Part shown: positions 83-46,012 of the stretch, piece after piece | How the letters are laid out: every line of letters begins with the position of its first letter | Numbering within the stretch: the first letter of the stretch is position 1 | The notes under the pieces: generated by a model | The model's input: only the letters and a program-made list of their open reading frames with translations | Told to the model about the DNA's origin: nothing | The model's database searches: none | Source: Candidatus Dojkabacteria bacterium | GTDB lineage: Bacteria > Patescibacteriota > Dojkabacteria > GCA-002793355 | DNA: 48,594 bases | Direction: 5' to 3' | Assembly: GCA_030583825.1 (NCBI GenBank) | Contig: CP129477.1 | Location: forward strand, 909,627-958,220 | Translations under genes and position numbers: made by a program

Positions 83-198
83 AGGGACGAGAAGCTGAGT
101 GAAAAACAGTAGCTGCTCCTACTGTTTTGAACGAAGAAGGGGTCGAGGAGCATACCTTAGGCTTTGAATATAATGCGAGGTGACCGAGTCCCTCCTCC
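83..198 (+). repeat. tRNA-linked mini-element, copy A (ends in a tRNA T-arm/3'-end-like sequence CGAGTCCCTCC)
   Basis: Shares GAAGCTGAGTGAA with the Thr-linked copy, and GGGGTCGAGGAG plus ATAATGCGAGGTGACCGA (18/18) with the Arg-linked copy. It has a 10-bp hairpin at 103-128, and AGGGAC (83-88) pairs with GTCCCT (188-193). Confidence 0.85.
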
Positions 199-3562: not shown

Positions 3563-3610
3563 GCGGAACCGTAGCGACCAATAGCAACGATTTGCTATTG
3601 TGTTGCAAGG
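3563..3610. repeat. 48-bp dispersed hairpin repeat, copy 1
   Basis: 45/48 identical to 14946-14993; stem CAATAGCAA-cgat-TTGCTATTG. Confidence 0.9.
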
Positions 3611-4054: not shown

Positions 4055-4606
4055 ATGAAAAGTATTCGGTATATTGCGTTACTCCGTGGAATTAACGTTG
4101 GTGGCAACAATATTATCAAAATGGCCGATTTGAAAGCCTGTTTTGAGTCAATGAAATTTGCAAATGTAGTCACATATATTCAAAGTGGCAATGTATTGTT
4201 CGATTCTCTCGAAGAAGATAAAGAAACGCTTGTGGGGTTAATAGAAAAAACGCTTTCGACTCAGTTTAATTATAGCTCAAAAATTGTACTTATTACTGCT
4301 GATCACCTTAGAGAAACTGTAAGTGATGCTCCCAGTGGCTTTGGTCAAAATTTCGAGGAGTATAAATACGATGTATTATTTCTAAAAGAACCTCTTGTTG
4401 CGAAAGAGGCTCTCGGAAGCCTCAAGTTAAGAGATGGCGTAGACAATGCATATGCCGGCAATGGTGTTTTGTATTTTTCGCGTCGGATAAAAGACCTTAC
4501 AAAAAGTTATCTCAGTAAAGTGATATTGCTTCCAATTTACAAAAACATGACAATCCGCAACTGGAACACGACCACAAAGCTATTAAGCTTAGCAAACCCG
4601 CAGTAA
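4055..4606 (+). CDS. DUF1697 domain protein
   Basis: YIALLRGINVGG.N.IKMADL..., V.TYIQSGNV.F and a C-terminal TIRNWNT, all characteristic of the family. Confidence 0.88.
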   Translation: MKSIRYIALLRGINVGGNNIIKMADLKACFESMKFANVVTYIQSGNVLFDSLEEDKETLVGLIEKTLSTQFNYSSKIVLITADHLRETVSDAPSGFGQNFEEYKYDVLFLKEPLVAKEALGSLKLRDGVDNAYAGNGVLYFSRRIKDLTKSYLSKVILLPIYKNMTIRNWNTTTKLLSLANPQ

Positions 4607-6567: not shown

Positions 6568-7843
6568 TCTGAAACTGCTTTAAAAATTCTTCTTTCGATA
6601 AAATCTTCTTTGCCGGTTCTTCTGCTTCTGGTGAATCTCCACTCTTATTTGTGTCTGCAGGCTTTAATTTCTGCGCAGCAGTACTCTTCGTGATAACTGA
6701 GGCCTTTACTTTTTTCGTGGTCTTTTTAGCCTTTTTTACTGTCTCAGAGGATACTCTTTTGCTTGAGATATCAACCTTTCTTTTCTGAAAGTTTGGAAGC
6801 GCTTCTGCAATTTTTTGTTCTGTAGCAACTTCTTTCGCAGAAAGTGCAGGTTTTATTTGTTCTTTCTCTTTCTTTTCTTCTTTGGCGGCTGGTTTAGTTT
6901 TCTCTTTTGCTTTTACTTTTTTCTTAACGACCTTGCCTTTTGAATTTGATTCTTCCGATACAATATCAAGAATAGTTTTCTGGCTGGACATTCCACCAAA
7001 TATGTCTGCAATGCTTTTCTCTTCTCTTTTCTTGTCCATTTTTCTGCGAATAGAAACAGCAACAAGAATAATAATTATGAATAGTGCTCCACCAATGATT
7101 GCGTAAAACTCGTTTGGATTTGTTTGTGTAAATGTTTTAATTCTTTCAACTATTTGTGTTATCTGGTTCTGTGCTTCTTGCACTTGAACTTGTGGGTTAA
7201 CTTCTGCCGAGAATAGCTTATACTCGACTGTTAATGGCTTTGATGCTTCGCTGATAAGACCATTTCTCAATACAAATGCAATAATCGTGTTTTTTCCTTC
7301 TACAGGTTCAGGGAGGATAAATTCCCACTTTCCGTCCTGGTTTGAAGAAAACTTATTCACGGTTGAGCTGTTTACAATAACCATAACTGTTGATTGCGGC
7401 AATGCAGTTCCTGAAAGAACAACCTGGTTTGGACGAACAACTTCTGTTTTGATTGTCTGGTCAAAGATTGGAGGCTTTGGAACAATAATCAATTGTTTTG
7501 AAAGTACTCGGACGAGACCTTCTTTATTTGTAAACTTGAATGTAACCGTATGTGCGCCAATTGGCAAGTTTGGAAGAATGAACGGGCTTGGTGCATTTTG
7601 CGTAATTTGTGTTCCAATGGCAATCTCTACTCCTTTTGAGCTTGGATCAACAAAAGTAACAGGATAATTTGGATCGTCGGAAGTTTCTGGAAGATTTAAA
7701 GAAAGTTCGCGGCTAATAGTTCGTTCTCTTTCTGCTTCTGCATTAAGGATCACCTGTGCTGGAGTTGGTGTTTGTGCCGACGCAACGGGACTAATAATTA
7801 TTACTCCTGCAAGGAGCGCGGCAATGATGAGGCGTTTCTGCAT
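6542..7843 (-). CDS. Hypothetical surface protein: signal peptide, Ig-like beta region, one TM helix, Lys/Ala/Glu-rich cytoplasmic tail
   Basis: MQKRLIIAALLAGVIIISPVASA signal peptide; VVLSGTALPQSTV....SSNQDGKWEF (bacterial Ig-like); TM AIIGGALFIIIILVAVSI. Start 7843 has TGtTACGCT 7 nt upstream. Confidence 0.65.
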   Translation of the reverse strand: MQKRLIIAALLAGVIIISPVASAQTPTPAQVILNAEAERERTISRELSLNLPETSDDPNYPVTFVDPSSKGVEIAIGTQITQNAPSPFILPNLPIGAHTVTFKFTNKEGLVRVLSKQLIIVPKPPIFDQTIKTEVVRPNQVVLSGTALPQSTVMVIVNSSTVNKFSSNQDGKWEFILPEPVEGKNTIIAFVLRNGLISEASKPLTVEYKLFSAEVNPQVQVQEAQNQITQIVERIKTFTQTNPNEFYAIIGGALFIIIILVAVSIRRKMDKKREEKSIADIFGGMSSQKTILDIVSEESNSKGKVVKKKVKAKEKTKPAAKEEKKEKEQIKPALSAKEVATEQKIAEALPNFQKRKVDISSKRVSSETVKKAKKTTKKVKASVITKSTAAQKLKPADTNKSGDSPEAEEPAKKILSKEEFLKQFQTKNEKNDK

Positions 7844-27705: not shown

Positions 27706-27837
27706 GTGGAAGACGGGATGGCGCGACGCTACTTTCGCTGTACTCAAGAGCGAACCTTCATTACTTTAATATATGAGGTTACTCACCGAGGATTCTCACT
27801 CTTGTGTCTATCTACCTTACAGGCAGCTACACACAAA
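27706..27837 (-). repeat. tRNA-Gly(GCC)-linked spacer closed by a duplicate of the tRNA 3' end
   Basis: 27706-27719 matches 27839-27852 at 13/14 positions. The spacer begins with a hairpin sharing TGCCTGT(T)AAGGTA with the one after tRNA-Gly(TCC). Confidence 0.7.
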
Positions 27838-33918: not shown

Positions 33919-33995
33919 ATAAAGTTGTGAGTACTAAAGAATTAAAGCTCAGGGAGGTATGCCAATTATAACTGAGCGGGAATACTACTTTTTTA

Positions 33996-34124
33996 GGTCA
34001 GGGCGGGGTTCGCTCACCTTGTAACAAACCATAATTCGCTCCGCGTCTATAGGTGTTACTACCTCGAGCCCATCTTCGTTCTAAATAGCAAATTGTTGCT
34101 ATTTTTCACTCAGCTTCGAATCCC
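33996..34124 (-). repeat. tRNA-linked mini-element, copy C (tRNA-Thr TGT)
   Basis: GGGATTCGAAGCTGAGTGAA, AAATAGCAA-caat-TTGCTATTT, GAACGAAGA, CTCGAGG and AAGGTGAG|CGAACCCCGCC, the last being a degenerate copy of the Thr CGAATCCCGCC. Confidence 0.8.
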
Positions 34125-34137
34125 TACTTCCCTAAAA

Positions 34138-34176
34138 TTGTTAAAAAATCCTAAACTCCTTAGGATTTTTTAACAA
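34138..34176. terminator. Perfect 17-bp inverted repeat abutting the tRNA-Thr(TGT) 3' end
   Basis: TTGTTAAAAAATCCTAA-actcc-TTAGGATTTTTTAACAA. A terminator or processing role is inferred. Confidence 0.5.
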
Positions 34177-34247
34177 GCCAGAGGCGGGATTCGAACCCGC
34201 GACAAACGGTTTACAAAACCGCTACTCTACCACTGAGTTACTCCGGC
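34176..34247 (-). tRNA. tRNA-Thr(TGT)
   Basis: GCGGT-TTTGTAA-ACCGT anticodon arm; T-arm GCGGG-TTCGAAT-CCCGC. Confidence 0.95.
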
Positions 34248-35823: not shown

Positions 35824-35945
35824 AGAATGCACCCGGAGGGAATCGGTCACCTCGCATTATGCTGAATTACTAATGAATACTCCTCGACCCCGTCCTCACT
35901 TAGAAAAGCAGGAGCAACTGCTTTTCTTCACTCGGTTTCGATTCC
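35824..35945 (-). repeat. tRNA-linked mini-element, copy D (tRNA-Arg), ending in a 22-bp exact duplicate of the tRNA 3' end
   Basis: 35824-35845 equals 36121-36142. All family motifs are present except that ACGAAG is degenerate. Confidence 0.88.
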
Positions 35946-35994
35946 TATCTTTCAGTTAAGAAGTAACACCACATTTCATATGCTGCTACCTCTT

Positions 35995-36120
35995 AATGCA
36001 CCCGGAGGGATACCCAGCTCCGCTTCTCTCGCAAAGCTCGAGTTAGAACCATTCACTTTGTGAAGGTCACTTTCCTTCCCCAGGTATTCTGCGCTATCAC
36101 CTAAAATTAGGTTACACCGC
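35995..36120 (-). repeat. Second tRNA-Arg-linked spacer closed by a 16-bp duplicate of the tRNA 3' end
   Basis: 35995-36010 (AATGCACCCGGAGGGA) equals 36123-36138. Confidence 0.8.
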
Positions 36121-36124
36121 AGAA

Positions 36125-36198
36125 TGCACCCGGAGGGAATCGAACCCCCAACCTTTGGTTCCGCAAACCAATGCTCTATCCAATTGAGCTACGGGTAC
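36125..36198 (-). tRNA. tRNA-Arg(GCG)
   Basis: TTGGT-TTGCGGA-ACCAA anticodon arm; acceptor GTACCCG/CGGGTGC. Confidence 0.93.
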
Positions 36199-45939: not shown

Positions 45940-46012
45940 TTGAGACGGTTATTTGCCTGTTAAGGTAAGTAGCCGCCTCAAGAAAATTACTGGGATTCGA
46001 AACCCGTAACCC
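45940..46012 (+). repeat. Hairpin followed by a near-complete duplicate of the tRNA-Gly(TCC) T-arm/3' end
   Basis: GGGATTCGAAACCCGTAACCC (45992-46012) versus the tRNA GGGTTCGAATCCCGTAACCC; long hairpin at 45940-45981. Confidence 0.75.

Follow-up and report, generated by a model that had tools for sequence, protein, structure and literature searches.

What are the non-coding units that trail tRNA-Arg(GCG) in this Dojkabacteria genome, and how did they come to end in copies of the tRNA's own 3' end? The original prediction, made on the window (the whole stretch of DNA analysed here, 48,594 nt), saw in them a candidate new system of mini-elements set into duplicated tRNA T-arms, and offered two ways of understanding it: elements mobilised in trans by a recombinase or a retro-mechanism, or structured RNAs co-transcribed with the tRNAs. 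On balance we favour a reading along the second of these lines, which also fits best what we found. The Arg stretch is probably tRNA-Arg followed by two tRNA-linked-repeat (TLR) units, a Dojkabacteria counterpart of the TLR/RtT sequences of E. coli, in which structured RNAs encoded in the trailer have spread as the 3' region of the tRNA was duplicated by recombination. The claim to novelty falls away on this comparison, as the architecture is that of the E. coli repeats down to the pairing of a 5' arm with the tail copy, and two units in the window appear to share a sequence motif with RtT.

All parts of the Arg array lie on the minus strand. The tRNA-Arg(GCG) gene itself (36125-36198) was identified with ARAGORN and the Rfam tRNA model (67.5 bits), and its 3' end does occur three times, as had been predicted. 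The first copy, found by reading the sequence, is at 36142-36121, inside the gene, and comprises the T-loop-to-3' end and 4 nt of flank. The second, DR2 (36010-35995), is an exact 16-nt copy of the 3' end (T60-A73 plus TT), and the third, DR3 (35845-35824), is an exact 22-nt copy of the T-loop-to-3' end (C56-A73 plus TTCT, the 4 flanking nucleotides). These exact tail copies of 16 and 22 nt each close one of two different non-coding units, and the tRNA-anchored stack with two different inserts that had been proposed is therefore present. The tRNA-proximal unit opens with hairpin H1 (TTCTGCG...CGCAGAA, 36087-36124), likewise recognised by reading the sequence, and continues into its core, insert 1 (36011-36081), which is RtT-like by local alignment to E. 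coli RttR and consists, in order, of GGGGAAGG.., GGUUCUAA, CUCG-AGCUUUG-CGAG, AGAAGCG and ..GGGUA. Next comes hairpin H2 (TTAAGAGGTAGCAG...TTACTTCTTAA, 35956-35996), the ancestral trailer hairpin of tRNA-Arg as judged from a homologue in the relative L081, where H1 is missing and H2 directly follows the tRNA. The distal unit, D, starts with the 5' arm GGAATCG (35939-35945), which forms the 5' strand of helix P1 and is the exact reverse complement of CGATTCC in the tail. It is followed by P2 (35897-35936), a variable hairpin whose base, delineated with RNAalifold, holds two tandem G.A/A.G mismatch pairs (CCGAGUGA...AAGUGAGG), and by P3 (35846-35891), made up of GGGGUCGAGGAG, a variable hairpin and GCGAGGUGAC. 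The first 7-8 nt of DR3 then supply the 3' strand of P1.

The four elements that had been listed with a common layout are all there and do share it. Besides D they are unit A (83-198, plus strand), of the same class as D with a core 75% identical; unit B (15058-15255, minus) behind tRNA-Val(CAC), with ends like those of A and D and a 20-nt direct repeat; and unit C (33996-34124, minus) behind tRNA-Thr(UGU), which has a diverged tail and positional counterparts in four relatives. Only three of the four had been placed behind tRNAs, and this count has to be raised to four, since a tRNA-Leu(CAG) located just outside the window precedes A by 100 nt and agrees with the tail of A over 10 nt. A different, RtT-like unit is found behind tRNA-Gly(GCC) (27708-27837, minus) and ends in a 12-nt tail copy, ATCCCGTCTTCC, at 27708-27719. 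Units A-D, like insert 1 and the Gly(GCC) unit, sit 40-280 nt behind a tRNA and on its strand. Tail copies measure 20 nt in B, 16 nt in insert 1 and 22 nt in D; those of A (10 nt) and C (13/18) are older copies. Unit B also has approximately 75 nt of additional hairpin modules set into the 5' strand of P3, and these modules are multi-copy in DNA contigs, with B-type sequence at at least 95% identity. A 3' duplicate had been counted at five of the seven tRNAs in the window and was indeed seen at Val, Gly(GCC), Thr(UGU) (diverged), Arg and Gly(UCC); Thr(GGU) and Trp have none. The absence of coding capacity was confirmed as well, there being no gene in the units and no ORF of at least 80 aa between the Arg repeats or in A or C, while an 85-aa chance frame on the opposite strand overlaps B and tRNA-Val.

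Two statements about the borders of the units needed revision. The junction had been said to fall at the same T-loop nucleotide each time, which is true for A-D only, where it reads GA(C/G)|CGA; even there it is not placeable within positions 56-58, because CGA is invariant in T-loops. For the other unit types of the window the junction is at positions 59-60 (..GCC|ATCCC in the Gly(GCC) unit and ..GGGTA|TCCC in the proximal Arg unit). The left end, described as T-stem-like, does not copy the 5' strand of the T-stem but is reverse-complementary to tail positions 56/57-63, as GGAATCG is to CGATTCC in D. This 5' arm exactly matches the T-loop letters of each host tRNA, a fit that is poorly explained by slow compensatory evolution and hints at some further mechanism.

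The core of the A-D class is a three-way junction in which the closing helix pairs the 5' arm with the tail copy. In this fold, P1 joins the 5' arm to tail positions 57-63, P2 forms a variable hairpin over a base of tandem G.A mismatch pairs, and P3 opens with a covarying 5-bp helix that uses C56 of the tail. In unit D this proximal helix of P3 is GGUCG/UGACC, with C56 borrowed from the tail, and its counterparts GCUCG/UGAGC, GGCUG/CAGCC and GGUUG/UAACC show the covariation. Counted on an alignment fitted to the covariance model (10 copies from 5 genomes), 90.9% of cells are paired, versus 69.1% in shuffles and 37-49% when the partners were slid; both sides have changed in 24 of the 32 pairs, and the observed values were reached by none of 500 shuffles. 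For P2, changes on both sides were found in 11 of 12 pairs. The assertion that the variable hairpins are always paired is thus upheld, with pairing kept across copies. G.U pairs outnumber A.C mismatches (21 versus 5), which points to the tRNA-sense strand as the one that is folded. Single-sequence folding energies are ordinary (z = -0.5 to -1.7). Two known motifs were tried and rejected: a hammerhead, whose CUGAGUGA / GAA motifs are off consensus and not kept in relatives, and a K-turn at GGUCGAGG/GGUGACC, where the covarying pair puts G4 within a plain helix.

A strict pattern matches A, C and D and had zero matches in 100 shuffles. The covariance model built from the same three units scores 114-138 bits on them and finds B at 19.6-25 bits, and each of its 10 matches is preceded by either a tRNA gene or a copy of a tRNA tail. 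Further copies beyond the window, which the original prediction had proposed looking for, were found in related Dojkabacteria, in one Paceibacterota genome and on one metagenome contig. As a DNA pattern searched over genome contigs, the strict pattern gave 44 matches, 43 of them by chance in GC-rich genomes and one real (L016); over metagenome contigs one of 30 matches was real (L055), and none of the 20 in viral contigs. Neither E. coli genomes nor phages returned blastn matches to the units. A possible match to a described Rfam family had also been raised; searches at both gathering and E-value thresholds returned only tRNAs. In the related Dojkabacteria, units stand behind about half of the tRNAs. 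Over the loci that contain tRNAs, 17 tail copies lie behind 14 of 33 tRNAs, one of the 17 being an 8-nt chance match at Trp.

Comparison of relatives shows which parts are kept. At the tRNA-Thr(UGU) locus a unit is present both in the window and in the four relatives L081, L084, L086 and L087, which have an RNase III 92-61% identical to that of the window; these units retain the core motifs and have their hairpin sequences swapped for other paired sequences. The motifs are kept at orthologous loci where the flanking intergenic DNA is approximately 50% identical. Core identity is 57% between two Thr(UGU) units, set beside the 75% between A at Leu and D at Arg. At tRNA-Arg itself the content differs, with insert 1 not present in L081, the site empty in L084 and other unit types in L086 and L087. 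Compared with L081, DR2 and DR3 seem to have followed their tRNA in acceptor-stem changes specific to the lineage. Stacking occurs twice, with two units at tRNA-Arg here and two at tRNA-Gly(UCC) of L087. The repeats extend 1-35 nt beyond the tRNA end in five units, and one L084 repeat is 54 nt long, including 35 nt of species-specific flank. Older copies keep only the P1 part of the tail while the acceptor part decays, which argues against the tRNA-like 3' arm, suggested earlier, as a maintained functional part. In L081, P1 is extended by the non-tRNA pairs AATGTAAAATG/CATTTTACATT. The suggested search for empty and filled sites revealed no polymorphism within the strain, contigs of six samples being 100% identical to the window. 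Many public sequencing runs from sludge contain the strain.

The E. coli tRNA-linked repeats with which we compare these units are said to have been known since Egan and Landy in 1978, with Rudd in 1999 also cited, and to our knowledge most of them are still without a known function or origin after almost 50 years. They include RtT/RttR of tyrT-tyrV (Rfam RF00391) and the sRNAs RrA, RrB and RrF (Stenum et al. 2021, PMC8144298). They lie directly downstream of a tRNA or 5S gene and in the same orientation, their last 18-19 nt equal the 3' end of the upstream gene, and 1-5 units stack per locus; they are gene-less and are transcribed by read-through past a first terminator-like hairpin (PMC8144298). 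The units described here are likewise behind a tRNA and on its strand, with tail copies of 16-22 nt and two units at tRNA-Arg. The likeness extends to RtT in particular. At tyrT-tyrV-rttR the helix closed by the 5' arm and the tail is followed by GAGAAGC, and the window has GGAU/GGAC-GAGAA(A/G)C; written out, the RtT consensus GgGaaGGAU GAGAA ... AUCCuuCcC stands against GGGAU/GGGAC GAGAA(A/G)C ... (C)GA(A/G)UCCC. Insert 1 and the Gly(GCC) unit in addition have RtT's GGUUCG(A), its CUCG..CGAG hairpin and its AGA(A)GCG. Scored against dinucleotide shuffles in about 20 comparisons, the local alignment of insert 1 with E. coli RttR gave z = 6.0 with the arm and 3.8 without it (p = 0.004), and the Gly(GCC) unit aligned to the same RtT segment with z = 4.7-4.9 (p = 0.0006 at 4.7).

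This likeness has its limits. Units A-D have no primary sequence similarity to RtT and, unlike it, are built on a three-way-junction core of their own (GGGGUCGAGG ... GAGGUGAC|CGA). Run at E values up to 10, the Rfam RtT model, which scores 133-138 bits on four E. coli copies, matched neither the Arg array nor the Gly(GCC) unit nor the Gly unit of L083; the model from A, C and D reached only 6.9 bits on RtT, and blastn and nhmmer comparisons of RtT with the CPR loci found nothing. Because none of these searches gives a match, common descent of A-D with the E. coli TLRs is not shown. The tails also differ from those of E. coli in being without CCA, since the tRNA genes of the CPR host are themselves CCA-less.

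Evidence for transcription came from exact metatranscriptome contig matches at 35925-36075, 33965-34115, 34088-34247 and 15058-15245, which are of low depth and strandless, with true ends not given. One RNA contig spans the tRNA-Thr 5' end into unit C, and the neighbouring EamA and M50 genes have zero depth in the RNA data. The transcription that had been proposed as a check is therefore seen over three trailers (B, C and the Arg array), in contigs that are few, of low depth and possibly affected by DNA carry-over. The contig end at 15058 was not taken as a true 3' end, as it may be an assembly break between repeat copies. A promoter-like site is present upstream of tRNA-Arg and none was found before the cores, which suggests that the units would be made by read-through from the tRNA promoter.

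These observations lead us to the following model for the TLR reading. Each unit would consist, in order, of a hairpin after the tRNA (or after the previous tail), a structured non-coding core, and a tRNA copy from the 3' half of the T-loop. Units may arise by duplicative, Campbell-like or unequal recombination with the left border in the T-loop and the right border at or beyond the tRNA end, and the direct repeats left behind could then add, stack, homogenise or delete units, presumably with no involvement of an element-encoded enzyme. Selection would act on the folded core and P1, and the remaining tail would be a side effect of the way in which units form. If E. coli RrA/B/F are taken as a guide, the RNA of a unit is probably either a small RNA derived from the trailer or one that binds a protein. 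The 3'ETS-leuZ-type sRNAs of tRNA operons (cited in PMC8144298) offer a parallel as functional small RNAs from a tRNA trailer, but they differ in having no tRNA-tail copy and no closing helix formed with one, and they are not a repeated family. No candidate partner protein was found in the 48-kb window or in approximately 160 kb of flanks (CPR loci L016, L055, L081, L083-L084, L086-L089 and L111).

The foremost rival, which we consider possible but rather unlikely, is non-autonomous mobile DNA. An enzyme encoded elsewhere, whether a serine or tyrosine recombinase or another, would insert a small circle (tail, hairpin, core) at the T-loop of a tRNA gene, restoring the gene and displacing its old 3' end, with the fold belonging to a single-stranded DNA or RNA intermediate or to protein-binding sites. 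In its favour are direct repeats that run from the T-loop at least to the end of the tRNA, like those of Campbell-type integration, the stacking of different unit types at one tRNA, the varying unit content of tRNA-Arg among relatives, the related cores behind Leu, Arg, Thr and Val tRNAs, whose arms and tails are specific to the host in each case, and the multi-copy state of B-type sequence at its high identity. However, the recombinase or reverse transcriptase that was originally invoked to mobilise the units is not encoded near any copy, no excision joints were detected in four DNA metagenomes, the locus is identical throughout the six samples, and the core is not in viral contigs or phage records. 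The hairpins that a protein would have to recognise vary freely in sequence and length, and the 54-nt repeat with its species-specific flank fits homologous better than site-specific recombination. The bridge/seek RNAs of IS110/IS1111 are similar in being structured non-coding RNAs with a short segment complementary to the insertion flank, but the repeats here are 16-54 nt as against a 2-nt core, and no DEDD recombinase adjoins the copies, the genes next to them, in the window as in ten related loci, being housekeeping genes. As regards MITEs and IS200/IS605-type PATEs, the end arms vary with the host tRNA, and neither the sequence nor the length of the P2 and P3 hairpins is constant between copies; IS200/IS605-type ends were rejected, as the hairpins are not conserved.

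Two other explanations we regard as highly improbable. Decayed att remnants (attL/attR with arms) of integrative elements or prophages once resident at tRNA genes would resemble CIMEs and Islanders in their direct repeats of the tRNA 3' end from the T-loop and in tandem accretion at one tRNA gene, both typical of tRNA-gene islands, but this idea is largely refuted by transcribed units of 100-300 nt (126-200 nt without ORF remnants) that hold no gene remnants and share one core and a covarying fold across unrelated tRNAs and other CPR lineages, with strong compensatory changes and motifs kept despite diverged flanks, and by viral and phage searches, the proposed check for known attP remnants, which gave chance matches only. 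Spread through RNA, in which a small RNA becomes attached, by its own action or otherwise, to a (pre-)tRNA at the T-loop, is copied to DNA up to the T arm and recombines behind the cognate gene (a "T-loop retro-insert" or small ribozyme), would agree with a partial tRNA copy that starts at the T arm and may take in the 3' trailer, as in a precursor tRNA, with the invariably sense orientation and with a junction rich in conserved nucleotides; yet it too has very little chance of being right, as no reverse transcriptase was seen in the neighbourhood of the copies, none of the known ribozyme families matches, and E. coli K-12, which is not known to have a reverse transcriptase, has 22 TLRs. Retroviral-style tRNA priming was tried separately and rejected because the order of parts is wrong.

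Returning to the TLR reading, a broader version of it may be put forward, though we hold it as a speculative idea with the odds against it: tRNA-linked repeats could be a pan-bacterial class of RNA modules in T-loop copies, extending from RtT of E. coli to the CPR and comprising several core types. They would be spread by a copying process that enters the letters of the host tRNA in the tail as well as in the 5' arm complementary to it, and the fold of the RNA would do the work either in this process or in some conserved role in the expression of tRNA operons. The presence of the class in some of the smallest known bacterial genomes, behind about half of the tRNA genes, transcribed and with compensatory evolution, argues that it is widespread and does something, or else that it spreads very efficiently. 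The Dojkabacteria copies provide a second, independent data set on the origin of the units and on their RNA partners, one that is rich in covariation and includes several core types as well as occupied, empty and decayed sites in related genomes. There is also a practical point for annotation, as such units are easily taken for att scars, pseudo-tRNAs or new mobile elements. One further case in the window lies behind tRNA-Gly(UCC), where a core-less T-arm-like near-palindrome with a tail copy (GGGATTCGAAACCCGTAACCC, 45992-46012, plus strand) could be a site that is not occupied or a scar left where a core was lost.

The tRNA-linked non-coding units of this genome are real and more widespread than the original prediction could see. 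What had been proposed there as a new system shares the architecture of the tRNA-linked repeats (TLRs) and RtT RNAs of E. coli; the Dojkabacteria units are a new structural variant of that known kind, in a distant phylum, and no new kind of system. At tRNA-Arg(GCG) (36125-36198), where all array features lie on the minus strand, the gene is followed first by hairpin H1 (36124-36087), then by insert 1, a 71-nt unit core (36081-36011), and by DR2 (36010-35995), whose 16 nt exactly repeat T60 to A73 of the tRNA plus TT. After hairpin H2 (35996-35956) comes the distal unit D, with its 5' arm GGAATCG (35945-35939), the P2 helix, GGGGUCGAGGAG, a hairpin, GCGAGGUGAC and finally DR3 (35845-35824), whose 22 nt match C56 to A73 plus TTCT exactly. 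In the same sludge, a 4654-nt contig of another organism carries two tRNA-Arg genes ~200 nt apart, one of them equal to the window tRNA-Arg (36126-36198) across 71 nt; that organism may be a relative whose trailers are arranged differently.

The common layout claimed for four elements is indeed shared by A (83-198, plus), B (15058-15255), C (33996-34124) and D. A strict pattern matches A, C and D and has zero matches in shuffles, and a covariance model trained on these same three scores them at 114-138 bits and B at 19.6-25 bits. Three of the four had been placed behind tRNAs, which stands for those three, but A follows one as well: on a Logan contig of the same strain the 3' half of tRNA-Leu(CAG) ends 100 nt upstream, and the tail of A copies its CGAGTCCCTC. 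As predicted, five of the seven window tRNAs have a downstream tail copy. B looks like an A/D-type unit with ~75 nt of GAAAAGCAACAATTTGCTTTTC-type modules nested between the GGGG and UCGAGG of its P3 strand. The GAAAAGCAACAATTTGCTTTTC hairpin module at 15151-15177 reaches ~10x baseline depth, and the P2 of unit C, an AGCAA-CAAT-TTGCT hairpin, is similar to it. Behind tRNA-Gly(UCC), a core-less near-palindrome, GGGATTCGAAACCC followed by GTAACCC (45992-46012), amounts to two unit arms without a core; the site is either unoccupied or scarred by the loss of a core.

RNAalifold gives the A-D class a three-way junction. In the closing helix, P1, the first 7-8 nt of the tail pair with the 5' arm. 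This arm reverse-complements tail positions 56/57-63 exactly and is no copy of the 5' strand of the tRNA T-stem. P2 is a variable hairpin with two tandem G.A/A.G mismatch pairs at its base. P3 opens with the 5-bp helix GGUCG/UGACC, which draws on C56 from the tail and is stacked directly on P1. Covariation was scored on alignment A3, which was fitted to the model and comprises ten copies from five genomes. Pairing is seen in 90.9% of its cells; shuffles give 69.1%, and shifting the partners by 1-3 columns gives 37-49%. Both sides changed in 24 of the 32 pairs, and none of 500 shuffles reached the observed values. The proximal P3 helix, for example, occurs as GGUCG/UGACC, GCUCG/UGAGC, GGCUG/CAGCC, GGCUG/UAGCC, GGUUG/UAACC and GCCUG/UAGGC. 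Since G.U pairs outnumber A.C mismatches (21 vs 5), the comparison points to the tRNA-sense strand as the folded one. Single-sequence folding energies are ordinary (z = -0.5 to -1.7), so that support for the fold comes from comparing copies and not from thermodynamics.

In E. coli, 22 TLRs are spread over ten loci with one to five at each, and their last 18-19 bp repeat exactly the upstream gene's 3' end (tRNA or 5S); most are without known function; RrA, RrB and RrF arise when transcription reads past a first terminator, and they bind Hfq and CsrA, RrB ending 3 nt beyond the repeat (Stenum et al. 2021, PMC8144298). We fetched the tyrT-tyrV-rttR locus for comparison. In the Rfam RtT consensus the closing helix, GGGGAAGG(A)U / A(U)CCUUCCCC, is likewise formed by a 5' arm and the tRNA-Tyr tail copy and is followed by GAGAAGC, where the Dojkabacteria units have GGAU/GGAC-GAGAA(A/G)C; the architecture is therefore that of RtT. 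By sequence the units fall outside the RtT family (RF00391): its model matches none of them, nor does any other Rfam family, the model built on A, C and D scores RtT at 6.9 bits, and blastn and nhmmer find no match between RtT and the units. Insert 1 and the Gly(GCC) unit do resemble one RtT segment (GGUUCG(A), a CUCG..CGAG hairpin and AGA(A)GCG), a likeness that A-D do not have; against dinucleotide shuffles, z = 3.8 for insert 1 without its arm and 4.7 for the Gly(GCC) unit, which after ~20 comparisons is no more than suggestive.

RNase III homologues, by the names their sources give them, agree with placing the genome in Candidatus Dojkabacteria. Relatives were reached via exact-protein look-ups. 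The strain shows no polymorphism, the window region being 100% identical in six sludge Logan assemblies. Copies beyond the window do occur. Five Dojkabacteria loci (L081, L083, L084, L086, L087) keep synteny, with RNase III 92-61% identical to the window's, and behind many of their tRNAs come a hairpin, a structured unit and then a tail copy. Of the 33 tRNAs in the fetched loci, 14 have a tail copy, none of them at L088 or L089, the most distant two of the Dojkabacteria loci. Pattern scans added two copies: one, at 37 bits, lies in a Paceibacterota genome (L016), and the other, at 29.8 bits, in a metagenome contig of unassigned taxon (L055), where a second unit of different type lies just upstream. 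In both (L016 7340-7400; L055 5640-5700, minus) the hairpin that follows the tRNA end or tail copy forms a long, perfect palindrome of ~25-29 bp per arm that takes in the acceptor 3' strand itself; in L016 a second tRNA gene, lying between tRNA-Pro and the unit, is for the most part hidden under a masked N run (7211-7310).

Units lie downstream of tRNA-Thr(UGU) in the window, L081, L084, L086 and L087. This spacer is ~50% identical when the window is compared with L081; islands of identity coincide with the core motifs, and other paired sequences stand in for the P2 stems. Tail decay falls outside P1 (the L081 unit retains only CGAATCCCAC, its P1 extended by the non-tRNA pairs AATGTAAAATG/CATTTTACATT), yet direct repeats overrun the tRNA end in five units, 35 of the 54 nt in L084 being flank. 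We infer from this that the acceptor part is a trace of unit origin, without selection, and that core and P1 are the part kept.

We lean, modestly, towards trailer-encoded structured RNAs whose multiplication and stacking would come about through duplicative recombination in the 3' region of the tRNA. The main rival, a DNA element mobilised in trans, we regard as rather unlikely. Cores of A (Leu) and D (Arg) are 75% identical and those of the two Thr(UGU) units 57%, despite arms and tails in A and D that carry the letters of their own host tRNAs, so cores have moved or been exchanged between tRNA loci. Searches of viral contigs and phage records gave no real match to the units. The tRNA-Arg site varies among relatives: in L081 the tRNA is followed directly by H2 and insert 1 is missing, the L084 site is empty, and L086 and L087 have other unit types. 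Insert 1 is either a gain of the window lineage or a precise loss from L081 through recombination between repeats. DR2 and DR3 have the acceptor-stem letters of the window lineage, unlike L081's, which suggests gene conversion with tRNA-Arg. Past the H2-like hairpin of L081, CGGAATAAAAAGCCAAGCAAAAG (within 4290-4400) resembles the first 25 nt of D and may be its decayed stump. A second two-unit stack lies behind tRNA-Gly(UCC) of L087 (586-657, minus), a long-type unit and then a short one ending AGGTA|AATCTCGTCGCCC, ~230-370 nt downstream, in the opposite order to the Arg array.

Transcription was read from four sludge metatranscriptomes, as Logan contigs only, which are unstranded and whose ends are not RNA ends. 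Exact RNA contigs span 35925-36075 (from within insert 1 through DR2 and H2 to the beginning of D), unit C (33965-34115, and 34088-34247, which runs from the mature 5' end of tRNA-Thr(UGU) via the hairpin into C) and all of B (15058-15245, plus 20 nt of a different left flank, indicating another B copy). In these contigs khpA has a depth of 3-7 and the adjoining EamA and M50 genes have none. A promoter-like site lies upstream of tRNA-Arg and none before the cores, which together with the low-depth contigs fits co-transcription with the tRNA by read-through.

Among DNA contigs, a 48-bp dispersed repeat (14947-14995 and 3563-3610) has a summed depth of 118.9 against a 10.1 baseline (~12x), and so probably many copies in the genome or community. 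Adjoining unit A, three neighbouring minus-strand genes at 220-2528, for an N6/N4 DNA methylase, a MutH-like protein (weak Pfam hit) and a Dam-type methylase, look like a restriction-modification-like module.
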